Source: a virus
Lineage: Duplodnaviria; Heunggongvirae; Uroviricota; Caudoviricetes
DNA: 46,881 bases
Virus record (IMG/VR): IMGVR_UViG_3300018065_000012
Strand: one strand, 5' to 3'
In this document: positions 9,275-46,881 of the stretch, piece by piece
How the letters are laid out: the number at the start of each line of letters is the position of its first letter
How positions within the stretch are numbered: position 1 is the first letter of the stretch
The notes under the pieces: generated by a model
Database searches by the model: none
What the model saw: the letters and a program-made list of their open reading frames with translations, nothing else
What the model was told of the DNA's origin: nothing
Made by a program: the position numbers and the translations under genes

Positions 9275-9276
9275 AC

Positions 9277-10317: not shown

Positions 10318-10322
10318 ATTAT

Positions 10323-10681: not shown

Positions 10682-10686
10682 ACTTT

Positions 10687-10762: not shown

Positions 10763-10765
10763 AAA

Positions 10766-11188: not shown

Positions 11189-11191
11189 AAT

Positions 11192-11267
11192 GGGGGATTA
11201 GCTCAGTTGGGAGAGCGTTTGACTGGCAGTCAAAAGGTCACGAGTTCGAGTCTCGTATCCTCCACCA
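11192..11267 (+). tRNA. tRNA-Ala(GGC) with G3-U70
   Basis: Acceptor GGGGGAT/ATCCTCC, D GCTC/GAGC, anticodon stem TTTGA/TCAAA loop CUGGCAG, T-arm ACGAG-TTCGAGT-CTCGT, A73, CCA. Confidence 0.8.
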
Positions 11268-11272
11268 CTTGT

Positions 11273-11349
11273 GCTCCCGTAGCTCAAATGGATAGAGTCC
11301 CTGTCTTCTAAACAGGATGTTGCAGGTTCGAGTCCTGCCGGGAGTGCCA
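11273..11349 (+). tRNA. tRNA-Arg(UCU)
   Basis: Acceptor GCTCCCG/CGGGAGT, D GCTC/GAGT, anticodon stem CCTGT/ACAGG loop CUUCUAA, T-arm GCAGG-TTCGAGT-CCTGC, G73, CCA. Confidence 0.8.
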
Positions 11350-11363
11350 ACTTGGAGAACAAA

Positions 11364-11555
11364 ATGGAATTCAGATGGTGGCCGTGCAGGTTGGCAAATG
11401 ATTTTTGTGAGTTGTTGAAAATTCCCGCATATGTTTTAGCATTGCCACTGAAACTGATTGAACATTATCAAGAGACGATTTGGAAAAATTACGCAACTCA
11501 ATCTGACCGGGCGTATACGACAACGGAAATTTCAGATGAAGATTTGGCGGTGTAG
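11364..11555 (+). CDS. hypothetical protein (63 aa)
   Basis: ATG 11364 (ORF-track TTG 11352). The stop lies inside the first 10 nt of the next tRNA. Confidence 0.4.
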   Translation: MEFRWWPCRLANDFCELLKIPAYVLALPLKLIEHYQETIWKNYATQSDRAYTTTEISDEDLAV

Positions 11556-11623
11556 CTCAGTCTGGACAGAGCATCGGATTCATACCCCGAAGGCCACTGG
11601 TTCGATTCCAGTCACCGCTACCA
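11546..11623 (+). tRNA. tRNA-Met(CAU) (initiator-like anticodon stem ...CCCGA; could be Ile2/k2C type)
   Basis: Acceptor GGCGGTG/CACCGCT, D GCTC/GAGC, anticodon stem TCGGA/CCCGA (A31/C39 mismatch) loop UUCAUAC, T-arm ACTGG-TTCGATT-CCAGT, A73, CCA. Confidence 0.7.
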
Positions 11624-11628
11624 ATTTT

Positions 11629-11716
11629 GGGCGAGTGGAGGAATTGGTATACTCGCGGGATTTAAAATCCCGTGGACTAATAGTCCATGAGGGTTCGAGT
11701 CCCTCCTCGCCTACCA
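11629..11716 (+). tRNA. tRNA-Leu(UAA), class II
   Basis: Acceptor GGGCGAG/CTCGCCT, 3-bp D-stem GAG/CTC, anticodon stem CGGGA/TCCCG loop UUUAAAA, variable arm TGGACTAATAGTCCAT, T-arm GAGGG-TTCGAGT-CCCTC, A73, CCA. Anchored to ORF-track ATG 11687. Confidence 0.8.
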
Positions 11717-11734
11717 CTTGACAGGAGAATTTCA

Positions 11735-12289
11735 ATGCCCAACGAGTATTTGTTTGAGTGCCGCGTTCCGAAACATTACTTTGTAACGTCTGGAGCAGGC
11801 CAAATAACGCAGGATGCGGGAGCTGATCATTATGAAACAGGTTCCTATGATTTGGCTTTGCTGGATGCTTCAATTGAGAACTTCAACGTTGTGAAGTATA
11901 CCAGTGTAGTCCCTAAAAATGCGGAAGAAATCCCTTTGGATGAAGCCAAAAAGTATTTCCGTCACGGCGCGGTGCTTGAATGCATCATGGCTCAAATGAA
12001 CGGCCCGCAAGGTGAACATCTTTGCGCTGGCGTAGGAAGATGCAAATGCAAAGTCAATGGAAGCTACATCGGTGGCTTTGCGGCTGAGTATGAAGGCAAT
12101 GCTTCGACAGAGAAAGCAGAAAAAATCCTTGAAAAAGATTTACAAGGCATTGTTGACAGGCGCTATGGAAAAAGTGGTGAAATGTTTGATCTTGAGTTCA
12201 CAATAAGAGATTTGGTTGTTGACGACGAATACGGCACTGTTTTGGCCGCTATTTGCTTTATCACGTACGAATTTCCGGTGATAGGATAG
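11735..12289 (+). CDS. Pyruvoyl-dependent arginine decarboxylase (PdaD)-like
   Basis: Recalled similarity to archaeal PdaD: VPKHYFVTSGAGQ (cf. NTVSLVAGSSEG), ALLDASIENFNVVKYTSVVP (cf. ALLNAGIGNVNLIRISSIMP, Ser-Ser self-cleavage region), AAEYEGNASTEKAEKIL (cf. IMEYEGKCSKKEAEK). ATG 11735 with GGAGA SD; the ORF-track frame begins inside the tRNA. Confidence 0.5.
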   Translation: MPNEYLFECRVPKHYFVTSGAGQITQDAGADHYETGSYDLALLDASIENFNVVKYTSVVPKNAEEIPLDEAKKYFRHGAVLECIMAQMNGPQGEHLCAGVGRCKCKVNGSYIGGFAAEYEGNASTEKAEKILEKDLQGIVDRRYGKSGEMFDLEFTIRDLVVDDEYGTVLAAICFITYEFPVIG

Positions 12290-12294
12290 AATGT

Positions 12295-12381
12295 GGCAGC
12301 GTGGTGAAATTGGTATACACGCGTGATTCAAAATCACGTCCGGGCAACCGGGTGAGGGTTCGAGTCCCTCCGCTGCTACCA
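12295..12381 (+). tRNA. tRNA-Leu(CAA), class II
   Basis: Acceptor GGCAGCG/CGCTGCT, anticodon stem CGTGA/TCACG loop UUCAAAA, variable arm TCCGGGCAACCGGGT, T-arm GAGGG-TTCGAGT-CCCTC, A73, CCA. Confidence 0.8.
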
Positions 12382-12388
12382 AACTAAA

Positions 12389-12595
12389 ATGAAAGACAAA
12401 AGCGTAATCCCAGAAGGCATTTATTGTCACGGCGTAAATGGCGTCTGCCCATATTGGTCCTCAAGGGAGGACAAACCAGAGCAGGAAAATGGATACTGTT
12501 CTTTTCTTGAAATGGGCGATTGGAACGATGAGCCTTTGACCCTTTTGTGGGATCAAGTGAAAGAATGCGGAATAAATGATGATTGGCCAACATAG
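12389..12595 (+). CDS. hypothetical protein (68 aa, Cys/Trp-containing)
   Basis: ATG 7 nt after the tRNA CCA. The stop lies inside the next tRNA. Confidence 0.45.
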   Translation: MKDKSVIPEGIYCHGVNGVCPYWSSREDKPEQENGYCSFLEMGDWNDEPLTLLWDQVKECGINDDWPT

Positions 12596-12661
12596 CTCAA
12601 TTGGCAGAGCAGGGCACTTGTAATGCTCAGGTTGTGGGTTCGAATCCCTCTGTTGGCTCCA
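12586..12661 (+). tRNA. tRNA-Thr(UGU)
   Basis: Acceptor GCCAACA/TGTTGGC, D GCTC-AATTGGCA-GAGC, anticodon stem GGGCA/TGCTC loop CUUGUAA, variable AGGTT, T-arm GTGGG-TTCGAAT-CCCTC, U73, CCA. Confidence 0.8.
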
Positions 12662-12677
12662 CTTCAAAGGGGAAATT

Positions 12678-13073
12678 ATGATTTGGATTTTTCTTATTGT
12701 TGCCGTTTATATTTTCATTGATGTTTGTATCCGACAACGCCCAAAAAAGGTTGATATATACAAGCAACATTTGATAGCAGACAGGGAACAAGCAGAAGAC
12801 ATTTCGAGAAAACGAGAAGCCATTTGGGAAAGGTCAAAGGAAAAGAGAGAAAAATACGAGAAGGAAATCAAAACACAACAAAAAATTGGGAGAAATCTTT
12901 TCAAGGCGTTTGAGCTGATTGGTTGGTTTCGAGACGAACATAACAGACGATGGATTACGCCTTGCGGTGTTTTAGAAGACGTTGAGATTTATTTTTCTAC
13001 GAAACTTTATGTTCATACAGCGATTTACCTTTTGAAGAAGAAAAACTTGTTTGCTGCCGTGGCTCAGTGGTAG
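12678..13073 (+). CDS. membrane protein (N-terminal TM helix, charged coiled C-terminal part)
   Basis: MIWIFLIVAVYIFIDVCI followed by a K/E/R-rich region. The last 21 nt overlap tRNA-Thr(GGU). Confidence 0.5.
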   Translation: MIWIFLIVAVYIFIDVCIRQRPKKVDIYKQHLIADREQAEDISRKREAIWERSKEKREKYEKEIKTQQKIGRNLFKAFELIGWFRDEHNRRWITPCGVLEDVEIYFSTKLYVHTAIYLLKKKNLFAAVAQW

Positions 13074-13127
13074 AGCACGTCCTTGGTAAGGACGAGGTCA
13101 TGGGTTCGAGTCCCATCGGCAGCTCCA
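13053..13127 (+). tRNA. tRNA-Thr(GGU)
   Basis: Acceptor GCTGCCG/CGGCAGC, D GCTC/GAGC, anticodon stem CGTCC/GGACG loop UUGGUAA, T-arm ATGGG-TTCGAGT-CCCAT, U73, CCA. Confidence 0.8.
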
Positions 13128-13167
13128 AGCCTTTATCACCCCGCTATTTACGTTATGCAAATCATGG

Positions 13168-13244
13168 GCCACCTTAGCACAATTTGGCGGTGCGCTGCTT
13201 TCGTAAGGCAGAGGTTCCCGGTTCGAATCCGGGAGGTGGCTCCA
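13168..13244 (+). tRNA. tRNA-Thr(CGU)
   Basis: Acceptor GCCACCT/AGGTGGC, D GCAC/GTGC, anticodon stem CTGCT/GGCAG loop UUCGUAA, T-arm CCCGG-TTCGAAT-CCGGG, U73, CCA. Confidence 0.8.
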
Positions 13245-33607: not shown

Positions 33608-33636
33608 TTGAAAACAAACGTCTAAGGTTGTATAAT
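33608..33636 (+). promoter_or_regulatory. sigma70-like promoter TTGAAA-N17-TATAAT (copy 3)
   Basis: TTGAAA 33608-33613, 17-nt spacer ending GGTTG, TATAAT 33631-33636. Confidence 0.6.
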
Positions 33637-33642
33637 GTATCG

Positions 33643-33847
33643 TTGAACAAAGGTCTTTTTGAAACTGGTGTAAAATGAATTTGGTCATAGCAAGCTCAAA
33701 CCATCCATGTCGATTCCCCGGACGCGGCGATGCCGCCCCAGCACGGGGTTGGTATGCGCCGTATTTCGGGCGTTTCGGGAGCTTGCTATGAGATAGGTAA
33801 CACAAAGTACTCAAGCAAGCCCCGAATGAAAATTCGGGGCTTTTTTA
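33643..33847 (+). ncRNA. candidate structured small RNA (about 200 nt) with its own promoter and terminator
   Basis: 13-bp perfect helix TCATAGCAAGCTC/GAGCTTGCTATGA enclosing GC-rich hairpins (CCCCG...CGGGG, GCGGC-GAT-GCCGC). Ends with a perfect terminator GCCCCGAA-TGAAAA-TTCGGGGC + T6 (33818-33847). A 38-aa ORF is possible but lacks an RBS. Confidence 0.45.
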
Positions 33848-33891
33848 TTGTTCTTTGACAACCAAATCGACAGCTTAACGCGGAAAAATTC

Positions 33892-33967
33892 GGGGATGTA
33901 GCTCAGTTGGGAGAGCGCTGCGTTCGCAATGCAGAGGTCAGGGGTTCGAATCCCCTCGTCTCCACCA
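33892..33967 (+). tRNA. tRNA-Ala(CGC) with G3-U70
   Basis: Acceptor GGGGATG/CGTCTCC, D GCTC/GAGC, anticodon stem CTGCG/TGCAG loop UUCGCAA, T-arm AGGGG-TTCGAAT-CCCCT, A73, CCA. Confidence 0.75.
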
Positions 33968-33975
33968 AATATAAT

Positions 33976-34052
<77 letters not shown>

Positions 34053-34054
34053 TT

Positions 34055-34130
34055 GGGGGCATAGCTCAGCTGGGAGAGCACAAGCTTTGCAAGCTTGGGG
34101 TCAGGAGTTCGAGTCTCCTTGCCTCCACCA
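34055..34130 (+). tRNA. tRNA-Ala(UGC) with G3-U70
   Basis: Acceptor GGGGGCA/TGCCTCC, D GCTC/GAGC, anticodon stem CAAGC/GCTTG loop UUUGCAA, T-arm AGGAG-TTCGAGT-CTCCT, A73, CCA. Confidence 0.8.
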
Positions 34131-34137
34131 AATACAA

Positions 34138-34271
34138 AAGGCACGCTTCAGTGAAGAGTTACTTCCCTTCGGCGGACGAAGTTCAGGTTCGATTCCTGAC
34201 CCTCCAACCATGATGGAGGGTAGTGTAATGGTAGCACGCGTAAAATATCTCTTTGCGTCTTTTGGTGCCTT
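34138..34271 (+). ncRNA. Bracketed element C1 with a permuted tRNA-like core (acceptor closed by an ACCATGA loop that encodes the discriminator and CCA)
   Basis: Terminal helix AAGGCAC/GTGCCTT; 5' module GCTTCAGTGAAGAGTTACTTC; T-arm TCAGG-TTCGATT-CCTGA; CCCTCCA-ACCATGA-TGGAGGG; D-arm GTGT-AATGGTA-GCAC; 3' module ...CTCTTTGCGTCTTTTGG. The anticodon region is aberrant. Confidence 0.5.
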
Positions 34272-34280
34272 TTATATTTT

Positions 34281-34388
34281 TCAGCACGCTTCAGTGATGA
34301 CATACTTCTTGGTTCAACTCCAACATCGCCCTCTATATGGGCGATGGTGCCACGTGGGTGGCGGTGTTGTTACGTTTTTTGGTGCTGA
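34281..34388 (+). ncRNA. Bracketed element C2 with a permuted tRNA-like core lacking an anticodon arm
   Basis: Terminal helix TCAGCAC/GTGCTGA; T-arm TTGG-TTCAACT-CCAA; acceptor CATCGCC-loop-GGCGATG; D-arm GCCA-CGTGGG-TGGC; 3' module CGTTTTTTGG. Confidence 0.5.
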
Positions 34389-34404
34389 ACTTTTTGAATA
34401 AATT

Positions 34405-34513
34405 CCGGCACGCTTCAGCGTGGGCTTACTTCTTTCTTAAAAAAAGAACCTGCCTGTTCGATTCAGGTGTTGGGTGGACCCGGTACAATTCGCTCATGCG
34501 TCTTTTGGTGCTG
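34405..34513 (+). ncRNA. Bracketed element C3 (anticodon-like arm and T-arm, degenerate acceptor and D parts)
   Basis: Terminal helix CCGGCAC/GTGCTGG (one G-U); TTCTTT-CUUAAAA-AAAGAA arm; T-arm GCCTG-TTCGATT-CAGGT; 3' module GCGTCTTTTGG. Confidence 0.45.
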
Positions 34514-34518
34514 GATTT

Positions 34519-34593
34519 AGCGGTGTTAGTGTATTGGTTGCACATTTGGTTCCCAGCCAGAAGGAGCCAGTTCGAGTCTGGTACACCGCTCCA
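34519..34593 (+). tRNA. tRNA-Gly(CCC)
   Basis: Acceptor GCGGTGT/ACACCGC, D GTGT/GCAC, anticodon stem TTTGG/CCAGA loop UUCCCAG, T-arm GCCAG-TTCGAGT-CTGGT, U73, CCA. Confidence 0.75.
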
Positions 34594-34596
34594 TTT

Positions 34597-34673
34597 GTCA
34601 AGGTAGCTCAGCACGGTAGAGCACTGGCCTGAAGAGCCGGGTGTCGTCGGTTCAAATCCGACCCTTGACGCCA
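34597..34673 (+). tRNA. tRNA-Phe(GAA)
   Basis: Acceptor GTCAAGG/CCTTGAC, D GCTC/GAGC, anticodon stem CTGGC/GCCGG loop CUGAAGA, T-arm GTCGG-TTCAAAT-CCGAC, G73, CCA. Confidence 0.8.
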
Positions 34674-34676
34674 CAC

Positions 34677-34752
34677 GCAGGCGCATGTTCCAAGGCTGGC
34701 GACGGGGATTCCAAATCCTTGTGGGTAGGTTCGATTCCTACCGTCTGCGCCA
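34677..34752 (+). tRNA. tRNA-Trp(CCA), copy 1
   Basis: Acceptor GCAGGCG/CGTCTGC, irregular D-arm, anticodon stem GGGGA/TCCTT loop UUCCAAA, T-arm GTAGG-TTCGATT-CCTAC, G73, CCA. Confidence 0.7.
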
Positions 34753-34755
34753 TAC

Positions 34756-34830
34756 AGGGCCATAGTTTAATTGGTAAAACGGGGGATTCCAAATCCTTTG
34801 ATGCGGGTTCGATTCCTGCTGGCCCTGCCA
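34756..34830 (+). tRNA. tRNA-Trp(CCA), copy 2 (identical anticodon arm, different body, A1-U72)
   Basis: Acceptor AGGGCCA/TGGCCCT, D GTTT/AAAC, anticodon stem GGGGA/TCCTT loop UUCCAAA, T-arm GCGGG-TTCGATT-CCTGC, G73, CCA. Confidence 0.7.
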
Positions 34831-34836
34831 ATCTGT

Positions 34837-34928
34837 GGAGAGTGTTCCCCACGGCAGACTGTAAATCTGTTGCCCATCAGAATAAGTGGGGTGGCGGCGA
34901 ATGGGTTCAATTCCCTCACTCTCCACCA
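34837..34928 (+). tRNA. atypical tRNA-Tyr(GUA)-like, 92 nt: 8-bp acceptor, no canonical D-arm, enlarged variable region (possible pseudo-tRNA)
   Basis: Acceptor GGAGAGTG/CACTCTCC; anticodon arm GCAGA-CUGUAAA-TCTGT; only TT-CCCC-ACG between the acceptor and anticodon stems; GTGGGG in the variable region could pair with CCCC; weak T-stem GGG/CCC; A73, CCA. Confidence 0.4.
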
Positions 34929-34932
34929 TTAA

Positions 34933-35018
34933 GGAGCGGTAGTCTAATTGGTAAGGCAGTGGGCTGTAAACCCACCGGCATTGCGCCATTGGAGGTTCGA
35001 GTCCTCCCCGCTCCACCA
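34933..35018 (+). tRNA. tRNA-Tyr(GUA), class II
   Basis: Acceptor GGAGCGG/CCGCTCC, D GTCT/AGGC, anticodon stem GTGGG/CCCAC loop CUGUAAA, variable arm CGGCATTGCGCCAT, T-arm GGAGG-TTCGAGT-CCTCC, A73, CCA. Confidence 0.8.
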
Positions 35019-35039
35019 TTTTTCTTTTTCAGCAAAAAT

Positions 35040-35061
35040 CTTTTATATTCGGTTGTATAAT
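35040..35061 (+). promoter_or_regulatory. weaker promoter-like site sharing the GGTTGTATAAT -10 element (no good -35)
   Basis: TATAAT 35056-35061 preceded by GGTTG as in the other promoters; the -35 region is CAAAAA. Confidence 0.3.
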
Positions 35062-35083
35062 ATAAGGGTAATTCTCACAGGGG

Positions 35084-35338
35084 ATGAATATGGAAACTCG
35101 GCCAGAAACGGGCAAAATGAAGTTTGGCGACGACTGGTCTGGAATATTCATCCGAGGCGACAATGCTTTCAATTATCATATGCAACTCAAAGAAGTTTTG
35201 AAAGACAATGGCGGTGAATTCGGCATTATTGCGAAACATACAATCCGAGATTTGATTGATCTTTTGGAATCTTGCGAAGAGCATAATGATATCAAACCGC
35301 AAAAATTGAAATCATTCGAGGAATGCCGTTATGAATGA
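35084..35338 (+). CDS. hypothetical protein (84 aa)
   Basis: ORF-track frame; overlaps the dCMP deaminase start by 8 nt. Confidence 0.45.
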   Translation: MNMETRPETGKMKFGDDWSGIFIRGDNAFNYHMQLKEVLKDNGGEFGIIAKHTIRDLIDLLESCEEHNDIKPQKLKSFEECRYE

Positions 35339-35786
35339 TAGACCATCCATTGACCAGACGATGATGGATATTGCAAAAACTTGGTCCTTTCGATCAAGAT
35401 GTTTACGGCGACAAGTGGGTTCAGTAATCGTAAAAGACAAACATGTTTTGACTTCTGGTTATAATGGCCCGCCAAAAGGGTTGCCTCATTGCGATGAATG
35501 TGGTGGTTGTTTGCGGCAAGAAATGGATTTGCCGTCAGGCGAACGTCAAGAACTTTGCAGAGGTTCTCACGCAGAATTGAATGCAATTATTCAAGCGGCA
35601 ATATTTGGGATAAGCGTAAAAGGCGCAACGCTGTATTGCACAAACTTTCCTTGTAACTTTTGTGCCAAAGCAATTGTTCAAGCTGAGATTAAAAAAGTCA
35701 TTTACGAAGATGACTATACGGAAGACGATAACATGGCAAAACAAATGCTTGAACATGTTGGAATTAAAATGGAGAAATTTGAATGA
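35331..35786 (+). CDS. cd: dCMP deaminase (cytidine/deoxycytidylate deaminase family)
   Basis: Zinc-binding HAELNAI and PCNFCAKAI (H[AC]E...PCxxC) motifs; size and context as in T4-type dCMP deaminases. Confidence 0.8.
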   Translation: MNDRPSIDQTMMDIAKTWSFRSRCLRRQVGSVIVKDKHVLTSGYNGPPKGLPHCDECGGCLRQEMDLPSGERQELCRGSHAELNAIIQAAIFGISVKGATLYCTNFPCNFCAKAIVQAEIKKVIYEDDYTEDDNMAKQMLEHVGIKMEKFE

Positions 35787-35962
35787 GCTGGAAAGATTTT
35801 CTTTACGGCGCGGCATCTGTTCTCGACTTGTCTGGTTCAATGGGCAATGCGCAAGTGAATGAAATTTTGCGCAAGTCTGACGCGGAAGCATTGAGGTCAG
35901 ATTGGGAAGCAGTTGGACAAGACATGTGGAAGGCGATTGAACAATCTGAAGATGTCGGGTGA
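35783..35962 (+). CDS. small acidic hypothetical protein (59 aa), translationally coupled to cd
   Basis: ATGA overlap with the cd stop; MSWKDFLYGAASVLDLSGSMGNAQVNEILRKSDAEALRSDWEAVGQDMWKAIEQSEDVG*. The stop lies inside the next tRNA. Confidence 0.45.
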   Translation: MSWKDFLYGAASVLDLSGSMGNAQVNEILRKSDAEALRSDWEAVGQDMWKAIEQSEDVG

Positions 35963-36038
35963 GCGCAGCTGGTGCTGTGAGTGGCCTGCAAAGCCATTTG
36001 GCCTTTGGGTCCAACTGGTTCGATTCCAGCATCCGACT
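35954..36038 (+). tRNA. tRNA-Sec-like (8/4 'allo-tRNA' architecture) tRNA with GCA (Cys) anticodon
   Basis: 8-bp acceptor GTCGGGTG/CATCCGAC; 6-bp D-stem CGCAGC/GCTGTG with 4-nt loop TGGT; 6-bp anticodon stem AGTGGC/GCCATT with loop CUGCAAA; long variable arm TGGCCTTTGGGTCCAA; 4-bp T-stem CTGG/CCAG with loop TTCGATT; U73; no encoded CCA. Confidence 0.5.
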
Positions 36039-36056
36039 CTAATTTGGAGAACATGA

Positions 36057-36311
36057 ATGCCAAAAAGAAGTTTCCCGCTCAAGATCAGTTTTGATCATGA
36101 AATTGATCGAGATACGATGTTTTTTCTTGCTGTAAAGTTTGCGAGAGAATATCCAAAAGCAGCGACACAAATAATTGGAGCATTGGAAGGGGAACGGAAA
36201 TATTGCAAGATCAATTGTCCGTTCCCTTTTGTATGTAGTGAGTTTCCTTGCAAAACGCTTTGTTGTAACGCAGACTGCTGCGACAACGGCCACGCTTATA
36301 GGATGAGCTGA
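36057..36311 (+). CDS. hypothetical Cys-rich protein (84 aa)
   Basis: GGAG SD. The C-terminus has CKINCPFPFVCSEFPCKTLCCNADCCDNGH. Confidence 0.45.
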   Translation: MPKRSFPLKISFDHEIDRDTMFFLAVKFAREYPKAATQIIGALEGERKYCKINCPFPFVCSEFPCKTLCCNADCCDNGHAYRMS

Positions 36312-36685
36312 TGCAATACGAACTTGAAAATGGTTACAAGGTTTGGGTGAACGCGAAGACTTACCGCTCGAAATTGAACAAGCAAGTTTGCATCAAATGT
36401 TTGAAACAGTATTGGCCAGATGCAGATTCCGTTTGGGATGTTCAAGCAGAACTGAAATGGGAAGAAGGCAGGTTGTATATTTGTCCTTGTTCTTCTGTTA
36501 ACGGGCGCGATGAAAACCGCAGAGCAGGCCGATACAACGAAGGCCGGTTGATCGAACACGACCCACCGGAAGCTTGCCCATTCAAAACAGAGCATCTTGT
36601 CAGTTGTAATAAACAAGGTTTCATCTATTATAAAAGCCGCATTGAGGAGTATTGCGAAAAGAATTTCAAAAAGGTGAAAAGGTGA
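36311..36685 (+). CDS. hypothetical protein (124 aa, Cys-containing)
   Basis: TGATG overlap with the upstream gene. Confidence 0.5.
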   Translation: MQYELENGYKVWVNAKTYRSKLNKQVCIKCLKQYWPDADSVWDVQAELKWEEGRLYICPCSSVNGRDENRRAGRYNEGRLIEHDPPEACPFKTEHLVSCNKQGFIYYKSRIEEYCEKNFKKVKR

Positions 36686-36873
36686 AGCTGATTGTAAAAT
36701 TTGTCGTCTTGATTGCTGGAAGTTATCTTTGCTATTTGTCTTGGGCTGAGCCAAAAACAATTATTTGGCTGTATGGAAATTATATCATGCCGGTTTTCTT
36801 TGCATGTATTCCGTTTTATGCAGCATGGTGGTGCTATCAAGACTTAAAGAGCGCCCGTAGCTCAGATGGATAG
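36682..36873 (+). CDS. small membrane protein (about 63 aa, two hydrophobic helices)
   Basis: GTG start overlapping the upstream TGA (GTGA). VKLIVKFVVLIAGSYLCYLSW...IMPVFFACIPFYAAWWCY. The 3' end overlaps tRNA-Arg(CCG). The ORF-track frame starts at 36652. Confidence 0.4.
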   Translation: MKLIVKFVVLIAGSYLCYLSWAEPKTIIWLYGNYIMPVFFACIPFYAAWWCYQDLKSARSSDG

Positions 36874-36927
36874 AGCGTCTGCCTCCGGAGCAGAAGGTCA
36901 CAGGTTCGAGTCCTGTCGGGCGTGCCA
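36851..36927 (+). tRNA. tRNA-Arg(CCG)
   Basis: Acceptor GCGCCCG/CGGGCGT, D GCTC/GAGC, anticodon stem TCTGC/GCAGA loop CUCCGGA, T-arm ACAGG-TTCGAGT-CCTGT, G73, CCA. Confidence 0.8.
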
Positions 36928-36946
36928 AACATACGAGGATGAAAGA

Positions 36947-37204
36947 ATGATAATCATGGAGCATGGAAACGTCGATAAACAAGTACCCAATCAAGGCGCG
37001 TGGGATATTCATGTTGCGGGGCAAGAAAAATATCCACTGGTGGTGATCCTTTGTCCCAAATGTCAAAAAGTATCTTGTCTCCGTAATCATACGATTCATC
37101 GCGACGGGACAGTTTCACCAAGCTTGGTCTGTCCAAGAGATGAATGTAATTTTCATGAAATGATCAAGTTGAAAGACTGGAAAGGGTTGCCTCAAAAATT
37201 GTAG
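36947..37204 (+). CDS. small zinc-ribbon-like protein (85 aa)
   Basis: ATG 36947 after GAGGATGAAAGA (the ORF-track frame from 36866 opens inside the tRNA). CPKCQ...CPRDEC. Confidence 0.45.
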   Translation: MIIMEHGNVDKQVPNQGAWDIHVAGQEKYPLVVILCPKCQKVSCLRNHTIHRDGTVSPSLVCPRDECNFHEMIKLKDWKGLPQKL

Positions 37205-37207
37205 TTT

Positions 37208-37283
37208 GGGCCGGTAACTCAATTGGTAGAGAACCGTTCTTATACAGCGGTAGTCGTTGGTTCGAATCCAACCCGGCCTACCA
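37208..37283 (+). tRNA. tRNA-Ile(UAU)
   Basis: Acceptor GGGCCGG/CCGGCCT, D ACTC/GAGA (3 bp), anticodon stem CCGTT/AGCGG loop CUUAUAC, T-arm GTTGG-TTCGAAT-CCAAC, A73, CCA. Anchored to ORF-track TTG 37223. Confidence 0.75.
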
Positions 37284-37304
37284 AATTCAAGATGGAGTGG
37301 AATT

Positions 37305-37559
37305 ATGAAAGAGGGACGCATAAGCAAAGGTGGCGTGGGAAATCCTCCAACAAGACCAAGACCCAAGCCACCAAAGGGACAAGGAGGCTCTCAAAAGTTG
37401 AAAGAAGTTTTGGAAGCCCTTGAATTCTATGCTGATGAAAGCAATTGGAAAAACGGGACGTCAGTTCATTACGAATGGGCGACGTTTGCTGAGTTGGATG
37501 AAGGCAAACGGGCAAGAAAAGCACTTGAAAAATATCGGGGTGTAGGAAAGTCTGGTTAA
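37305..37559 (+). CDS. hypothetical protein (84 aa)
   Basis: ATG 37305 after GGAGTGG (the ORF-track frame starts at 37257 inside the tRNA). The last 24 nt overlap tRNA-Pro(CGG). Confidence 0.4.
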   Translation: MKEGRISKGGVGNPPTRPRPKPPKGQGGSQKLKEVLEALEFYADESNWKNGTSVHYEWATFAELDEGKRARKALEKYRGVGKSG

Positions 37560-37613
37560 TCCGCTACGTTCGGGACGTAGAGATCGCCGGTTCAAATCCG
37601 GCCACCCCGACCA
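37536..37613 (+). tRNA. tRNA-Pro(CGG)
   Basis: Acceptor CGGGGTG/CACCCCG, D GGAA/ATCC (3 bp), anticodon stem CTACG/CGTAG loop UUCGGGA, T-arm GCCGG-TTCAAAT-CCGGC, A73, CCA. Confidence 0.8.
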
Positions 37614-37629
37614 CTTTAGGAAAAGGCTG

Positions 37630-37764
37630 ATGAACGATCCAAAAGCTTATCAATACACAGGCTCATTGAGTGACAAGTTCTTTATTGTGTTGATCATTTT
37701 AGCAATGATTTCTGTTCCTATTTTTATTATAATTGCGTTTTTGTATTGGGTTCCAAGGAGCTAA
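37630..37764 (+). CDS. small single-TM membrane protein (44 aa)
   Basis: AGGAAAAGG SD then ATG 37630. MNDPKAYQYTGSLSDKFFIVLIILAMISVPIFIIIAFLYWVPRS*. The stop lies 1 nt before the next ATG. Confidence 0.4.
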   Translation: MNDPKAYQYTGSLSDKFFIVLIILAMISVPIFIIIAFLYWVPRS

Positions 37765-37765
37765 A

Positions 37766-38008
37766 ATGCTTTACACGGTTGGCGAGACAGAAAAATACGA
37801 GCAATATATAAAAGAGCAAGGCACGATTTCAAAGGCAGTTGGTGGCTCAGTTTGGAGTTCAAAAGAAGCCGCGCAAAAGTATTTGAAAGAAAGAGGGTTG
37901 CTTGGAAAATTTACTGTTTACGGCATTGACGCCGGTTGGAATGATACTGAATATACAGGTAATCCTTGGCGTGATTTGAAAATTGTTGCAAAAATAATTG
38001 AACTTTGA
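37766..38008 (+). CDS. hypothetical protein (80 aa)
   Basis: ATG 37766 after AAGGAG (the ORF-track frame starts at 37733). Confidence 0.5.
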   Translation: MLYTVGETEKYEQYIKEQGTISKAVGGSVWSSKEAAQKYLKERGLLGKFTVYGIDAGWNDTEYTGNPWRDLKIVAKIIEL

Positions 38009-38082
38009 GCGGGTGTAGCTTAATGGTAAAGCTCCAGCCTTCCAAGCTGATCACGTGGGTTCGATTCCCATCGCCCGCTCCA
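38009..38082 (+). tRNA. tRNA-Gly(UCC)
   Basis: Acceptor GCGGGTG/CGCCCGC, D GCTT/AAGC, anticodon stem CCAGC/GCTGA (C27/A43 mismatch) loop CUUCCAA, T-arm GTGGG-TTCGATT-CCCAT, U73, CCA. Confidence 0.7.
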
Positions 38083-38087
38083 TTTAA

Positions 38088-38161
38088 GCGGCTGTAGCTC
38101 AGTGGTAGAGCGCAAGGTTGCCAATCTTGCTACGAGGGTTCGATTCCCTTCAGCCGCTCCA
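38088..38161 (+). tRNA. tRNA-Gly(GCC)
   Basis: Acceptor GCGGCTG/CAGCCGC, D GCTC/GAGC, anticodon stem CAAGG/TCTTG loop UUGCCAA, T-arm GAGGG-TTCGATT-CCCTT, U73, CCA. Confidence 0.8.
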
Positions 38162-38223
38162 AAATTAAAGATGAAACGGAGATATATGATGAGCCAATCA
38201 CCTTTTGTTCGGGGGATTACATC

Positions 38224-38481
38224 ATGGACGCTCCAAAATGCGAACATCTGTTACCATTTTTGCAAGCTCAAACGCGGCTGATAACAAAACATTTGGGCGA
38301 GCATAAATGGTTCCAAAAAATTGAAAGTGAAAATGAAGCAGTTGGAGATTTCATTGAAAAGTTTGGGTGGGTAATGCGAGAATTCTTTTGTGGTTATTGT
38401 TGTGAACATCGTTATGAATGCGACATTGCCATAGAATACGATTTCTTGCCGCCAGAGAGGAAAAAGCAAAATGACCCTTGA
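38224..38481 (+). CDS. hypothetical protein (85 aa, Cys/His-containing)
   Basis: ORF-track frame; a GGGGGA lies upstream. Confidence 0.4.
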   Translation: MDAPKCEHLLPFLQAQTRLITKHLGEHKWFQKIESENEAVGDFIEKFGWVMREFFCGYCCEHRYECDIAIEYDFLPPERKKQNDP

Positions 38482-39274
38482 AGAAGCACGCAAACTTGTT
38501 TTGAAATCATTCAACAAAAGTGATTTCTATTACAACCATCAATCGCCGCATGGCTATACAAACTTCATTGACGGGATGGCGTGGGTTGGTTTATTGTGCG
38601 GCGCATGTCATCTTGTGGATGACAAAGAGTTGGCGGCATTAGCAGAAAACTACTTGAGAATGCTTTTGAAAGTTGGACCGGATGCAAGAAATTATGCGCC
38701 GATGAAAGTAAGAGACGACTGGATCAAATCTGAAACAGCTCCCGGATTTTGGTACCGTAAAAAGCCGCAGTCCTTCGCGGGGCCAGCGGCTTTATTGTTT
38801 GCTATCAACTGCGGCGCAAAATTGGATAACCCCTTCAACATTGAATCACGTGCCAAGTGGATGCGTTTCTTAAATCCATTCTTTGGTTATCTTGTGCGTT
38901 GGTTTCATTGGTTCAGACAGCATATCAATAGTCAGTTTATCGCTCATTTGATTAACGATTCCAAACCGCCAAGCTCAATGCTTTGGTTGTGCGAGGAAAA
39001 TCCTTTTTTCAGCGCTATTGCTGGAATTGAATGCAGTGTTGAATACCCGAAATCATGGAGCCGGTTTCAAAAGTATGAAACAAAAGACGTGGACGATATT
39101 CAACCGCTGAAAAACCGGAAACCATCAGCTTGGATTTTCAGAAGTTGGCCCAAGGCCGAATACACTGGCGCACTTCCTTACGCGGGCAGTGCTTATACGC
39201 CAACGGCAATGGTTGTTGGTGAATATTTGCAACAGCATTTGAGGAAGAAAAATGCCAAAGTACAAGACAGTTGA
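38471..39274 (+). CDS. hypothetical protein (267 aa, Trp/Phe-rich)
   Basis: Overlaps the upstream gene by 11 nt. No motif recognised. Confidence 0.5.
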   Translation: MTLEEARKLVLKSFNKSDFYYNHQSPHGYTNFIDGMAWVGLLCGACHLVDDKELAALAENYLRMLLKVGPDARNYAPMKVRDDWIKSETAPGFWYRKKPQSFAGPAALLFAINCGAKLDNPFNIESRAKWMRFLNPFFGYLVRWFHWFRQHINSQFIAHLINDSKPPSSMLWLCEENPFFSAIAGIECSVEYPKSWSRFQKYETKDVDDIQPLKNRKPSAWIFRSWPKAEYTGALPYAGSAYTPTAMVVGEYLQQHLRKKNAKVQDS

Positions 39275-39491
39275 GGAACTTGCGCAAGCATTCCAAACAG
39301 GTGAGTTTGGAGCAGATGGTCAAGTTATCAAGATTGAATCGGATGACATAAACGCTTCATTGGTTCGGGTAACTTGCGCAGAGGAAAGTCCTGACGAGTT
39401 TGAAATAATGTTCGAAGGATACGTACAAGGCGGTTATACAAAAGTGAAAAACGAGCTTGGGCCGTCTTTTGGAAGAGCGAAAAAAGAATGA
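39252..39491 (+). CDS. hypothetical acidic protein (79 aa)
   Basis: Overlaps the upstream gene by 23 nt. Confidence 0.45.
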   Translation: MPKYKTVEELAQAFQTGEFGADGQVIKIESDDINASLVRVTCAEESPDEFEIMFEGYVQGGYTKVKNELGPSFGRAKKE

Positions 39492-39494
39492 CGT

Positions 39495-39571
39495 CGGGGT
39501 GTGGCTCAGCTTGGTAGAGCGCTTGACTGGGGGTCAAGAGGTCGCTGGTTCAAATCCAGTCACCCCGACCA
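39495..39571 (+). tRNA. tRNA-Pro(GGG)
   Basis: Acceptor CGGGGTG/CACCCCG, D GCTC/GAGC, anticodon stem CTTGA/TCAAG loop CUGGGGG, T-arm GCTGG-TTCAAAT-CCAGT, A73, CCA. Confidence 0.8.
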
Positions 39572-40705: not shown

Positions 40706-40770
40706 TCGACACGCTTCAGCGCAAAGATACTTCTTGGTATAGAAAAGCTTTGCTCGATTTTTGGTGTCGA
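40706..40770 (+). ncRNA. Bracketed element D (minimal copy) in its own promoter-to-hairpin unit
   Basis: Terminal helix TCGACAC/GTGTCGA; 5' module GCTTCAGCGCAAAGATACTTC; inner helix GCAAAG/CTTTGC; 3' module TCGATTTTTGG. Confidence 0.55.
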
Positions 40771-44400: not shown

Positions 44401-46881
44401 ACGCAAGGTTGGCAAGGCAATCAAGGTTATTTGGGGCCACAGGGTTATTCTCCGCAAGGTTGGCAAGGAGCGCAGGGAAATCAAGGCGATATTGGTTCTG
44501 ATGGAGTTCAGGGCGTACAAGGAAATCAAGGGGACGTAGGTGATACAGGCATTCAAGGAAATCAAGGCAATCAGGGCGATATCGGTATTGATGGAATCCA
44601 AGGGCCACAGGGGAATCAAGGTAATCAGGGCGCAGTTGGTGTTGATGGCGTCCAAGGCGTTCAAGGAAACCAAGGTGACGTAGGTGATACAGGTAGTCAG
44701 GGGGCGCAGGGCAACCAAGGCATTATTGGACAAGACGGAGTTCAGGGCAACCAAGGTTCACAAGGAAACCAAGGTCAAGTTGGCGATACAGGCTCTCAAG
44801 GAAATACTGGTGCTGATGGAGTTCAAGGCAATCAAGGAGCGCAGGGGAACCAAGGCTTACAAGGCGATACTGGCGATACAGGCGTACAAGGAAATCAAGG
44901 TTGGCAGGGTGTTGTTGGCGCTGATGGAGTTCAAGGTGCGCAAGGGGACGTAGGTGCGGATGGCGTACAAGGCAATCAGGGTTGGCAAGGTGCTATCGGT
45001 GTTGATGGAGTTCAGGGCAGTCAAGGAAATCAGGGCGATATTGGTGCGGATGGTGTTCAGGGTTCACAAGGGAATCAAGGCGTTGTTGGTTCTGATGGAG
45101 TCCAAGGCGTTCAAGGCAACCAAGGCGACGTAGGCGATACGGGCATTCAGGGTTCACAAGGTTCGCAGGGCAACGTTGGTCAGGACGGGGTTCAGGGAAA
45201 TCAGGGAGCGCAAGGAAATCAAGGTCAGGTTGGAGATACAGGTTCGCAAGGTAATCAGGGCTGGCAAGGAACAGGCGATACAGGCGTACAAGGAGTGCAG
45301 GGAAACCAAGGCGATGTTGGCTCTGATGGAGTTCAAGGCGCACAAGGTGACGTAGGAGATACAGGCGCTCAAGGTAATCAGGGCGCAGTTGGTGCGGATG
45401 GAGTCCAAGGGAATCAGGGAAGTCAAGGAGACGCTGGTACTGATGGCGTACAAGGCAATCAGGGGAATCAGGGTTCTATTGGCGTCGATGGGGTTCGGGG
45501 TAATCAGGGACGACAAGGTAATCAGGGCAATGCTGGCGACACAGGCACACAGGGGAATCAGGGCAACCAAGGAAATGTCGGTCAGACAGGCGTACAAGGG
45601 AGTCAGGGAAACCAAGGCGATGAAGGTACTGACGGGGCGCAAGGCAATCAAGGCAATACAGGCGCACAAGGGAATCAGGGCAACCAAGGAAACGTAGGAC
45701 AAGACGGTGTTCAGGGAAATCAGGGAAACCAAGGCGATGAAGGTTTCCAAGGTTATCAAGGGACAAATCCCGGTGTTCAAGGGCCGCAAGGTTGGCAAGG
45801 ACAAGATGGCCTCGGCGCTGCTGCTACTCTTGGAGAGTTGTACGCAAAGGATTATGGAACAGGACAAACGCTGGATACCGTCAACACGTGGGAAGTGGTT
45901 GAAGCCCTTGCGACGGCTGGCAATAGTTACAACACCACTCTAAGCACCGTAAACCATACCATTACAGTGTTGAAAACGGCACTGTATAACATGGATTGGC
46001 AAATATCGTTCAGTGGCACAGCAAACCATCAAATGGAGTTTGCTGTCTTTGTAAACAATGTTGCTCAGAATGACACGTATCAAGAACGAAAACTGAATGC
46101 AAATGGTGATACAGGCAATGTTGGCGGCACTGCAATTCTGTCATTGACTGCTAACGACGTTGTTGATTTGCGTGTTCGGGATACGACATCTTCTGGAAGC
46201 ATCACTGTAAATCATGCGAATCTTAACGTTGATGAAATTGTTGGTGTTGGGCCGCAAGGAGTTCAGGGCGCACAAGGCAATGATGGAGTTCAGGGAAATC
46301 AAGGTAATGTAGGTGATACAGGCGATACAGGAGCGCAAGGAAATCAAGGTTGGCAAGGTGATGCTGGCACGGACGGCGTACAGGGAAATCAAGGCAATCA
46401 GGGCTGGCAAGGAACGGGCGATACAGGAGCGCAAGGAAATCAAGGAGATGTAGGACAAGATGGAGTCCAAGGCAATCAGGGTAATCAAGGGGATGTAGGC
46501 ACTGATGGTTCACAAGGAAATCAAGGCTTACAAGGCGATACTGGCGATACAGGTGCACAAGGAAATCAAGGTAATGTAGGTGATACAGGCGTTCAAGGCG
46601 CGCAGGGTCGTCAAGGGAATCAGGGCGACATTGGCGATACAGGAGCGCAGGGGAATCAAGGAAACGTAGGACAAGATGGAGTTCAGGGAAATCAAGGCAA
46701 TCAAGGATGGCAAGGTACGGGTGATACAGGGCCACAAGGGTATCAAGGTTGGCAGGGAGATGAAGGTTCACAAGGCAATCAAGGATGGCAAGGTTGGCAA
46801 GCAAGCGGTGGCGAAGAAAGAGCGTTGTTCTGTTGTTCGTTCTTTACTTCAAAGCGGTCATACATTGAGTATTCACAAACA
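41491..46881 (+). CDS. Giant collagen-like (Gly-X-Y) protein, open at the window end (more than 1796 aa): N-terminal 210-aa non-collagen domain, about 1200 aa of GXY triplets, an internal 150-aa C1q/BclA-CTD-like globular insert, then GXY resumes
   Basis: Read in frame from ATG 41491 with no stop to 46881. It is absent from the ORF track, which appears to list only stop-closed ORFs. Translation from 42121 is GGIGSQGNQGNQGDVGIDGVQGPQGNTGID...; the insert at about 45790-46250 has beta-rich TNF/C1q-like sequence (...ITVLKTALYNMDWQISFSGTANHQMEFAVFVNN...DLRVRDTTSSGSITVNHANLNV). Confidence 0.75.
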   Translation, partial: MTRSLLSQSLQVDASATYDDTIASVHTQPVAEGQANLEGDLNVLRTLLKNLIGEPDWYDPAELSMKELADKFLMEALHQSGFENVTVGTGTSTTVFDGPIKSIANHNNGQGSSTVEGVVVDSERAYRLFIRDHDSGDPISDGSGNAVYGRLSFGAGTYTISWHTFNGGSESTYNFTSPIDLDLAFVAVSRQFKNLDWNHFLDVEFYDIGIGGIGSQGNQGNQGDVGIDGVQGPQGNTGIDGVQGGQGRQGNQGEVGESGVQGYQGWQGTIGVDGVQGAQGNQGNIGIDGVQGAQGNQGDIGTDGVQGGQGVQGWQGTGDTGPQGNDGVQGWQGDFGAQGNQGDEGTGNQGNQGPAGIDGQQGAQGDVGIQGYQGNQGFIGVQGFSPQGWQGPQGGIGVDGVQGNQGRQGNQGNAGDTGGQGRQGAQGAVGADGFQGNQGDIGVDGVQGPQGNVGLQGVQGWQGDQGVDGVQGNQGNQGDVGSDGADGAQGRQGNQGQVGDIGAQGAQGWQGLQGIDGVQGNQGVAGDIGFQGAQGYQGTGVQGSQGNQGDIGVDGVQGTQGNQGDIGVDGVQGPQGDVGIDGVQGVQGSQGNQGQVGDTGAQGNQGRQGNQGQVGDTGSQGNQGDIGVQGAQGNQGLQGDQGVDGVQGSQGNQGDIGVDGVQGAQGNQGLQGDQGIDGVQGTQGWQGIVGFQGNQGLQGIDGVQGNQGSQGNQGQVGDTGSQGTQGNQGDVGQDGVQGNQGRQGNQGDIGVDGVQGSQGNQGAVGVDGVQGVQGDVGSDGVQGVQGNQGWQGDVGIDGVQGPQGNVGVDGVQGVQGSQGWQGIDGVQGVQGWQGLQGDQGIDGVQGNQGNQGSQGNQGEVGDTGTQGTQGNQGIIGQDGVQGNQGRQGNQGAIGVDGVQGNQGNQGDQGIDGVQGNQGWQGTGDTGAQGSQGNQGWQGEFGPQGDEGTGNQGSQGPAGIDGTQGFQGSDGTQGWQGNQGYLGPQGYSPQGWQGAQGNQGDIGSDGVQGVQGNQGDVGDTGIQGNQGNQGDIGIDGIQGPQGNQGNQGAVGVDGVQGVQGNQGDVGDTGSQGAQGNQGIIGQDGVQGNQGSQGNQGQVGDTGSQGNTGADGVQGNQGAQGNQGLQGDTGDTGVQGNQGWQGVVGADGVQGAQGDVGADGVQGNQGWQGAIGVDGVQGSQGNQGDIGADGVQGSQGNQGVVGSDGVQGVQGNQGDVGDTGIQGSQGSQGNVGQDGVQGNQGAQGNQGQVGDTGSQGNQGWQGTGDTGVQGVQGNQGDVGSDGVQGAQGDVGDTGAQGNQGAVGADGVQGNQGSQGDAGTDGVQGNQGNQGSIGVDGVRGNQGRQGNQGNAGDTGTQGNQGNQGNVGQTGVQGSQGNQGDEGTDGAQGNQGNTGAQGNQGNQGNVGQDGVQGNQGNQGDEGFQGYQGTNPGVQGPQGWQGQDGLGAAATLGELYAKDYGTGQTLDTVNTWEVVEALATAGNSYNTTLSTVNHTITVLKTALYNMDWQISFSGTANHQMEFAVFVNNVAQNDTYQERKLNANGDTGNVGGTAILSLTANDVVDLRVRDTTSSGSITVNHANLNVDEIVGVGPQGVQGAQGNDGVQGNQGNVGDTGDTGAQGNQGWQGDAGTDGVQGNQGNQGWQGTGDTGAQGNQGDVGQDGVQGNQGNQGDVGTDGSQGNQGLQGDTGDTGAQGNQGNVGDTGVQGAQGRQGNQGDIGDTGAQGNQGNVGQDGVQGNQGNQGWQGTGDTGPQGYQGWQGDEGSQGNQGWQGWQASGGEERALFCCSFFTSKRSYIEYSQT

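Follow-up and report, generated by a model that had tools for sequence, protein, structure and literature searches.

Probable Y RNA-like genes with tRNA-like heads among the tRNA genes of a metagenomic phage

The viral record IMGVR_UViG_3300018065_000012 (IMG/VR; Caudoviricetes), a stretch of 46,881 nt that we refer to as the window, encodes 47 tRNA genes as called by ARAGORN, all on the + strand and grouped in two arrays (2585-13244 and 33892-39571). What fills the 389-nt gap in the second array, between the end of a tRNA-Ala(UGC) at 34130 and the start of a tRNA-Gly(CCC) at 34520? An initial annotation of this DNA recognized two permuted tRNA-like cores there, C1 and C2, each closed by a "module helix" and lacking a decoding anticodon arm, and proposed that such bodies could act as decoys or substrates for tRNA-directed enzymes. 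We find that three elements (C1 to C3) occupy the gap and that these, together with three further elements in the window (E1, E2 and one at 40706-40770), are probably Y RNA-like RNA genes of the YrlA/YrlB type, in which a constant stem carries a variable head. The anatomy first described was correct, as was the listing of C1 and C2, although C3 (34405-34514) and the element at 40706-40770 had been overlooked. As Y RNA-like genes, C1 and C2 are a phage branch of a known RNA family and not a new kind of tRNA. The parts of C1 are as follows.

34138-34271, + strand: C1, a complete Y RNA-like element, with a stem module and a tRNA-like head (V hairpin, T arm, acceptor hairpin, UA, D arm)
34138-34165, + strand: 5' half of the stem module; P1 AAGGCAC, loop GCUUCA, P2 GUGAAGAG, then UUACUUC
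34183-34199, + strand: T arm, UCAGG-UUCGAUU-CCUGA
34200-34220, + strand: acceptor-like hairpin of 7 bp; CCCUCCA (34200-34206), loop ACCAUGA (34207-34213), UGGAGGG (34214-34220)
34221-34222, + strand: U8-A9 (UA)
34223-34237, + strand: D arm, GUGU-AAUGGUA-GCAC, with A14, A15, G18, G19 and A21
34249-34271, + strand: 3' half of the stem module; P2 CUCUUUGC, loop GUCUUUUG, P1 GUGCCUU

The T arm, 7-bp acceptor, capping loop, UA and D arm first assigned to C1 are all present with their pairings intact, and the acceptor loop encodes both A73 and CCA. A15 of the D arm can form a Levitt pair with U48 at 34182. At the position of the anticodon arm, ACUUC (34161-34165) is indeed able to pair with GAAGU (34178-34182) without leaving a 7-nt loop, but this helix is rivalled by a CUUCG/CGAAG hairpin that is favored in the minimum free energy (MFE) fold, and the loop is 5 nt or 12 nt.

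The stem module consists of a P1 helix of 7 bp, an internal loop of 6 and 8 nt (NCUUCA/GNYUWUYG), a P2 helix of 8 bp and a following WUACUUC. An exact 11-mer from it, GCACGCTTCAG, occurs in four + strand copies in the window, with one-mismatch copies at 4131 and 40709. MFE folds of five elements share a common plan of P1, loop, P2 and head, with z-scores from -2.0 to -5.7, and the pairings of C1 and C2 exceed chance. An exact-pattern scan of IMG/VR with the 5' motif led to a 253-kb phage contig with several more elements in its tRNA arrays, and a scan of JGI metagenomes returned 33 loci. We then ran an element finder, defined by the 5' motif and P1/P2 pairing, over the 795 kb of fetched DNA and obtained 109 hits, compared with 7 in reversed and 12 in block-shuffled controls; a stricter filter yielded at least 65 distinct elements in public metagenomes, mostly in the tRNA arrays of huge phages. 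Among 62 aligned distinct stems, 13 of the 15 base pairs show changes on both sides, and the stem covariation score is 0.842, compared with 0.241 for shuffled alignments (0/500 reach 0.842) and at most 0.158 for slid registers. Across the 62 stems CUUCA and UAC do not vary, partly because the filter imposed them; at loop positions free of it, C28, U42 and G44 are found in 62/62, and U40 and G37 in 57/62. The position of the YUAY that follows the stem of Y RNAs reads UAC in all 62, preceded by U in C1 (UUAC) and by A in C2 (AUAC). The ACUUC/GAAGU helix is perfect in just 9 of 32 elements (at least 4 of the 5 pairs form in 20 of 32); it is therefore a feature of a subclass and cannot account for the invariance of ACUUC.

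This stem is consistently associated with genes for Ro60. A tblastn search of all fetched loci with the Ro protein of mycobacteriophage Bxz1 matched locus L039, where three elements, two of the hairpin type and one tRNA-like, lie 57-560 nt upstream and on the same strand of a 587-aa open reading frame (ORF) with TROVE (6.8e-24) and vWA_Ro60 domains. Homologs of the L039 protein form a large clade, and two loci from the first RNA-motif scan (L011 and L019) have a Ro60 gene immediately downstream. Searches that began from Ro60 found one or two same-strand upstream elements at L067, L068, L069-72 (protein P0057), L073 (P0090), L074 (P0037), L075 (P0102), L076 (P0100), L077 (P0099), L080-82 (P0064) and L083-85 (P0047). 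Searches with the RNA motif thus reach TROVE genes and searches with Ro60 reach the elements, so the link holds in both directions. Counting only genes with at least 300 nt of upstream sequence, a stem element stands upstream on the same strand of 13/13 distinct Ro60 (TROVE plus vWA) genes, at distances of 57-1452 nt; a same-strand site upstream of Ro60 is the criterion by which YrlA was correctly identified (Chen et al. 2014, PMC4201824). The sequences themselves demonstrate the structures, their covariation, their conservation across phages and their genomic link to Ro60.

The Ro60 of the 253-kb contig (P0090), whose tRNA arrays hold C1- and C3-like elements, matches the solved structures of the phiLo (1.8e-18), Deinococcus radiodurans Rsr (1.4e-9) and Xenopus (8.8e-5) proteins, that of phiLo being the closest. 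Members of the clade share 45-50% identity with one another and are distant from Rsr. The 253-kb contig (L073 3127-12483) and a 345-kb contig (L075 531-12484) have a Ro60 neighborhood in common, comprising a metallophosphatase, 2H-SAK, a CCA-adding enzyme with PolyA_pol and HD domains, DUF5661, the Y RNA element(s), Ro60, ClpP and a histidine kinase with its paired response regulator. The subfamily has so far been seen only on phage-like metagenomic contigs. When 185,579 bacterial and archaeal genomes were scanned twice with exact patterns, the scans gave 0 and 3 matches, none of them a true member. The three matches were unpaired and chance-like, and tblastn with the clade Ro60s found no Ro60 at those loci.

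The other elements of the window carry different heads on the same stem.

34281-34388, + strand: C2, a complete Y RNA-like element with a minimal head, without a V hairpin
34308-34324, + strand: C2 T arm, (C)UUGG-UUCAACU-CCAA(C), abutting the 5' module
34324-34346, + strand: C2 acceptor hairpin (also delimited as 34325-34345), 7 bp around a 9-nt loop or, in an alternative reading, 8 bp around a 7-nt loop
34348-34363, + strand: C2 D-like hairpin, non-canonical, GCCA-CGUGGG-UGGC, without U8 and a canonical D loop
34405-34514, + strand: C3, the last of the three clustered elements; V hairpin, T arm and a short conserved hairpin GUUGGG-UGGA-CCCGGU, no D arm
3965-4037, + strand: E1, stem module with a small hairpin head (YrlB-like type)
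4128-4261, + strand: E2, stem module with a full tRNA-like head; anticodon-like hairpin (loop CUUGUAA), T arm, acceptor hairpin, D arm
40706-40770, + strand: sixth element, not part of a tRNA array; stem module bearing a small hairpin head

In C2, the T arm fused to the 5' module, the perfect acceptor hairpin and the lack of an anticodon arm are as initially described; the hairpin that had been called its D arm is present, but it is degenerate and not a canonical D arm. The 7-nt version of the acceptor loop reads UCUAUAU and contains no CCA. The E2 acceptor hairpin has 8 bp and a UUCG loop. C2 represents a subclass that also occurs on four other contigs. Its members lack the V hairpin and combine a T arm with an acceptor hairpin of 7-8 bp and a hairpin of the GCCC...GGGC type, and RNAalifold recovered the same helices from five C2-type relatives with 15 of 33 pairs compensated. 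Relatives of C3 have a hairpin UGGG-UGGN-CCCG in common. A syntenic relative, L036, has the order tRNA-Gly, C1 ortholog, C3 ortholog (261-372), tRNA-Phe, and there the T, acceptor and D parts of the C1 ortholog are identical to those of C1 while the V hairpin and tail differ.

Across the family the heads mimic tRNA in several ways. A T arm is present in 39 of the 65 elements, and in 31 of these 39 a perfect hairpin of at least 7 bp starts from the base right after the T stem, compared with 4.2% in shuffles. In 20/34 heads, UA or UG leads into a D stem of 4 bp whose loop contains GG. The second D-loop base covaries with the base before the T stem, as expected for positions 15 and 48 (G:C 8, A:U 12, A:C 1), with a Fisher value of 4e-5 that overstates independence because the sequences are interrelated. 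RNAalifold applied to 17 C1/E2-type relatives recovered P1, P2, the T stem, the 7-bp acceptor and the D stem independently, with 25/31 pairs compensated. NCCA stands at tRNA positions 73-76 in 10/34 heads (binomial 8e-11), which amounts to 10 of the 20 whose acceptor loop can accommodate it; it is absent from heads closed by a tetraloop, such as E2. There appear to be two head designs, one nickable with an exposed CCA end (C1) and one closed (E2).

The same stem is shared by tRNA-like and small-hairpin heads, and other head types include a native-order D/anticodon/T arrangement, tandem GRAAGAC hairpins and structured domains of ~160-170 nt. Native-order heads adjoin Ro60 in L075 (8551), L076 (162) and L077 (2088); a further one, at L064 2872-2737, is called tRNA-Cys(GCA) by both ARAGORN and Rfam (44.3 bits) and is flanked by a Y-type stem and an extra hairpin. 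Heads of ~140-160 nt lie on the stem directly upstream of Ro60 genes at L011 383-575, L069 639-851 and L080 9484-9693 and consist of four or five tandem hairpins with GRAAGAC loops (e.g., CUGCAAAGACAG, CAGGGAAGACUG and CAUGGGAAGACAUG). The ~160-170-nt heads (L043 3164-2942, L064 3905-3696, L083 2422-2647) have GGCUCUAAGGUAGC-like segments in common, and those of L043 and L064 gave no Rfam match at E values up to 0.05. L043, a related phage contig that bears stem elements, also encodes a full tmRNA (4354-4722, - strand; 118 bits).

The closest known counterpart is YrlA (Rfam RF02553) of Salmonella Typhimurium and Mycobacterium smegmatis, a tRNA-mimicking bacterial Y RNA whose protein partner is Rsr, the Ro60 ortholog (Chen et al. 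2014, PMC4201824). The phage elements follow its order of parts: an asymmetric loop interrupts the terminal stem, and YUAY, a V hairpin, a T arm with a UUCRA loop, an acceptor-like stem-loop, UA and a D arm come after it. They also show the same 15:48 covariation and place E1 beside E2 as the hairpin-type YrlB stands beside YrlA. The Rfam consensus has P1 of 6 bp, a loop of 5 and 8 nt, P2 of 7 bp and CUA, followed by the T, acceptor-like and D hairpins. The absence of an anticodon arm was correctly observed and is the norm for the YrlA design. Of the YrlA RNAs studied, only that of M. smegmatis has a 7-bp acceptor; in vivo it is cleaved by RNase P and ends in CCA, with both halves still bound to Rsr (PMC4201824). 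The 10/34 heads with NCCA parallel this cleavage and CCA ending, and the processing originally envisaged for C1, in which cleavage after CCA and at the 5' end leaves halves held by the stem, would match the M. smegmatis experiment (PMC4201824). The phage family differs in that CCA is encoded in C1 rather than added, in that GNCGAAN0-1G/CGAA is replaced by the loop NCUUCA/GNYUWUYG followed by an invariant UACUUC, and in copy number and placement, with six copies per 47 kb scattered through tRNA arrays as opposed to one or two beside rsr.

Three other systems offer partial likenesses. Mycobacteriophages Bxz1/ET08 encode YrlA-like RNAs upstream of the Ro-like gene gp220, and the head of the Bxz1 YrlA is nearly superimposable on that of E2 (UUAC, a hairpin with a 7-nt loop, GAGGU, (C/U)GCGGGUUCGA(A/G)UCCCGU), but the Bxz1 stems have GGCCGARRG and CACCAUGUC loops and lie <300 nt from Ro, outside tRNA arrays. 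Thermus phage phiLo has its own Ro60 with Yrl1/Yrl2 directly upstream (PMC12135203); these are recognized by the CGAA motif, and the accessible portion of that paper describes no tRNA-like head for them. D. radiodurans resembles the arrangement proposed here in producing Yrn2-tRNA-Asp-Yrn1 as a single precursor (Chen et al. 2014, PMC4201824), and the tRNA-like features of Yrn1 and Yrn2 are in native D/anticodon/T order like those of L075, L076 and L077. Its Y RNAs, however, conserve the Ro-binding helix of the metazoan type on both strands and have a different sequence motif. Our literature search found no paper that describes this phage Y RNA-like subfamily.

Several observations count against the assignment to Y RNAs. 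No TROVE domain was found among the 30 large ORFs of the window, nor by tblastn with Bxz1 Ro and the clade Ro60s on the window and the ~9 kb upstream of it (L029), which is as far as the Ro60 search reached; C1 and C2 therefore lie outside the usual 4 kb of Ro60. The phage of locus L074 has a 93%-identical gene in common with the region upstream of the window, and synteny ends before the L074 Ro60. The Ro-binding motif GNCGAAN0-1G/CGAA occurs in 0/62 stem modules, where the loop reads NCUUCA instead. The RF02553 gathering score of 69 is not reached, with C1 at 24.4 bits (local match 34182-34237) and E2 at 33.9 bits (4168-4232), in each case over the tRNA-like part only, and the model scores ordinary tRNA-tRNA junctions alike (33.1 bits at 33922-34018, for example), such that a match to it proves nothing alone and is a lead, not a test; at gathering score Rfam returns tRNAs only. 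The genuine YrlA of Bxz1, used as a control, also falls below gathering with 32.5 bits on its tRNA-like part alone, so the threshold is a weak test for phage members. Pairing and parts of the motif were required by the finder, and this selection inflates the figure of 98% paired positions and some of the loop invariance, while the diversity of pair types is unaffected. Finally, although the T, acceptor and D parts of C1 are kept at L036, the encoded CCA is not strictly kept (ACUA where C1 has ACCA), and C2, for all that its subclass recurs on other contigs, is missing at L036 and hence dispensable there.

The first alternative is close to the one originally proposed, that these are tRNA decoys or substrates acting independently of Ro60, whose heads sequester or divert tRNA-directed enzymes such as RNase P, the CCA-adding enzyme or host nucleases acting on the anticodon or acceptor, while the stem merely stabilizes them. 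The heads do mimic tRNA well, the elements belong to tRNA arrays in a phage that has 47 tRNA genes, and no Ro60 gene lies in the window. However, a merely stabilizing stem need not fix at least 14 loop positions while its helices covary, and the same stem with only a tiny hairpin as its head stands directly upstream of Ro60 at many loci. We consider this explanation unlikely: since the module is the conserved, Ro60-linked part, the anticodon-less body as a free-standing decoy is no longer the leading reading, although the whole Ro60-Y RNA particle may serve as a decoy.

A second alternative accepts the stem as the functional part but has it bound by another protein, or acting as a processing signal, with its adjacency to Ro60 reflecting shared regulation rather than direct binding. 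In favor of such a view, its loops differ from the CGAA site through which known Y RNAs contact Ro60. Set against this, the loop geometry of 6 and 8 nt fits the 5 and 8 nt of the YrlA consensus, the elements lie upstream of Ro60 on the same strand at all 13 loci, and the divergence of the Ro60 clade, both internally and from Rsr, makes a co-evolved site plausible. We regard this second alternative as improbable, and the constant stem is most likely the docking site for the phage-type Ro60, with its TROVE ring and vWA domain.

The permuted order of the heads raises a third possibility. Circularly permuted tRNA genes in the red alga Cyanidioschyzon merolae mature into translating tRNAs, and in these, as in two-piece permuted tmRNA, the T arm and acceptor 3' strand precede the acceptor 5' strand. 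Maturation of C1 and C2 into translating tRNAs, by joining of the stem ends and cleavage of the acceptor loop, would account for this 3'-half-before-5'-half topology and for the encoded CCA, and some relatives have 7-nt CU-NNN-AA loops. Yet permuted tRNA and tmRNA genes yield a working product, whereas C1 and C2 have neither a decoding loop of 7 nt nor a tag ORF. The initial conclusion that they are not translators is borne out by the absence of any ARAGORN call at 34131-34519 and by an Rfam tRNA score of 17.6 bits (threshold 29); as a permuted tmRNA (RF04321, tmRNA_permuted) the region scores 14.3 bits against a threshold of 47, and ARAGORN calls no tmRNA. The element ends form the 7-bp/6+8-nt loop/8-bp stem and no bulge-helix-bulge, no complete anticodon arm of the C. 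merolae type is present, P1 and P2 are kept as helices rather than discarded, the hairpin-only members cannot be tRNAs, and the Ro60 link also opposes this origin, which we judge very improbable. That the elements are degenerate debris of tandem tRNAs or a spreading MITE-like repeat without function at the RNA level, as could be suspected from the match of the Rfam YrlA model to ordinary tRNA junctions and from the HNH and PD-(D/E)XK nuclease genes in the tRNA arrays, is scarcely credible given that, over at least 20 contigs, every helix shows compensatory changes and the loops stay fixed, that the acceptor strands are mutually complementary, unlike those at junctions of different tRNAs, and that the copies are divergent rather than near-identical in sequence.

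Returning to C1 and C2 as Y RNA-like genes, we infer how such RNAs are processed, whether Ro60 binds them, with what partner and to what end by analogy with the studied systems. Within the second array the elements are embedded as follows.

33892-35018, + strand: tRNA array around C1-C3, in the order Ala, Pro, Ala, C1, C2, C3, Gly, Phe, Trp, Trp, tRNA-like sequence, Tyr, with short AU-rich spacers

The short spacers and the lack of an internal promoter suggest that C1-C3 are co-transcribed with the tRNAs; two weak terminator-like matches in the region are parts of the elements themselves. The Y RNA-like RNAs would probably be made within polycistronic tRNA precursors and cut out by the same enzymes. 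C1-type heads, with their 7-bp stem, NCCA and spacer, would probably be nicked by RNase P and trimmed to a CCA end, with the halves held together by the stem. In the predicted fold the T arm stacks on an acceptor-like hairpin of 7-8 bp, to which C1 adds a canonical D arm with the 15:48 Levitt pair, and C2-type heads would be a reduced version consisting of elbow plus minihelix. If the systems of Deinococcus, Salmonella, Mycobacterium and phage phiLo are a guide, the Y RNA would act as a gate to the Ro60 ring, and the tRNA-shaped head would tether Ro60 to a tRNA-recognizing partner, such as PNPase or tRNA processing and repair enzymes, and would shield the RNA. PNPase is the partner named for the Deinococcus, Salmonella and phiLo systems (PMC4201824; PMC12135203), and in the model published for phiLo the Ro60 particle engages host PNPase (PMC12135203).

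We tentatively hypothesize, as a possibility short of an expectation, that huge phages use "one handle, many heads," a Ro60-binding stem joined to a library of tRNA mimics and other structured heads and expressed from tRNA operons. If so, some heads with encoded CCA could be charged, and the Ro60 particle could be steered to several tRNA-handling enzymes such that damaged phage tRNAs are repaired or culled, or host defenses that target tRNA are blunted; this would be a programmable adaptor logic undescribed for any Y RNA system. The family offers natural variants by the dozen on one stem (full mimics, elbow-plus-minihelix forms and hairpins only, with or without encoded CCA) in phages that carry near-complete tRNA sets and whose relatives also have Ro60 beside a CCA-adding enzyme and a 2H phosphoesterase, and this range and context make the role of the tRNA-like domain of bacterial Y RNAs approachable by comparison and experiment. 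Predicted Ro60 sites need not contain CGAA, and since that motif is absent here and Rfam scores are low, searches based on either would miss a large phage branch. Y RNAs thereby join the items concealed in the "gaps" of phage tRNA arrays.

The arrays hold other unusual RNAs. Just upstream of the second array (33608-33850, + strand), a strong promoter-like site (TTGAAA-17-TATAAT, 11/12) and an intrinsic terminator at 33817-33842 flank ~200 nt with a potential long hairpin (CAUAGCAAGCUC ... GAGCUUGCUAUG), a GC-rich core and no meaningful Rfam match, which may be an independent small RNA gene. The tRNA-like sequence between tRNA-Trp and tRNA-Tyr (34836-34925, + strand) is not called by ARAGORN and scores 28.9 bits with the Rfam tRNA-Sec model; it has an acceptor GUGGAGAG...CUCUCCACCA, an anticodon-like loop CUGUAAA (GUA) and a long variable region. 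Two called tRNAs are unusual in architecture. An 86-nt gene (35954-36039, + strand; Rfam span 35953-36039) is tRNA-Cys(GCA) according to ARAGORN, yet it scores 60.6 with the selenocysteine-tRNA model (gathering 47), and for a 72-nt tRNA-Trp(CCA) (34681-34752; span 34676-34752) the same model, at 37.6 bits, surpasses the general tRNA model.

Between tRNA-Ile and tRNA-Lys in the first array, a ~200-nt RNA (10385-10589, + strand) resembles a miniature RNase P RNA, with a CR-I-like AGGAAGGUCAGGAC, a CR-V-like ACAAAAUCCUGCCUAC and a closing helix UGCUCUCAU/AUGAGAGCA; it matches RNaseP_bact_a at 28.2 bits (E 3.7e-5), far under gathering. A counterpart in the 253-kb relative (L010 880-1069) matches RNaseP_arch at 31.7 bits (E 6e-6) and contains GAGGAAGCUCGGGAC and ACAGAAUCCCGGCUAC. 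If true, an RNase P RNA of phage origin would be relevant to the cutting of tRNAs and C1-type RNAs.

A megablast comparison of 22 kb of sequence with GenBank phages gave a single match, of 65 nt in a tRNA. ORFs between the arrays are phage-like auxiliary genes, including glycosyltransferases, epimerases, beta-helix proteins, HNH and PD-(D/E)XK nucleases and a caspase-like protein. Three 411-aa ORFs and a 485-aa ORF upstream had been suspected of being RtcB or Ro and are actually beta-helix proteins and a glycosyltransferase. Genes between tRNAs encode an HNH endonuclease (3060-3632), a PD-(D/E)XK endonuclease (6929-7306), a deaminase of the cytidine/deoxycytidylate type that also matched MafB19-like deaminase (35331-35786) and a weak match to a Macro domain (10766-11188). 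A caspase-domain protein (Peptidase_C14, 3.5e-32; 93-1103) and a pyruvoyl-dependent arginine decarboxylase (7.4e-32; 11687-12289) are also encoded in the window, and the anaerobic ribonucleotide reductase NrdD with its radical-SAM partner lies immediately upstream of it (L029 5033-7649). At the other end (~45100-46881), long ORFs occur in several frames on both strands with repetitive, low-complexity translations (e.g., repeated KGIRATKE), which suggests one repeat-rich gene continuing past the end of the window.

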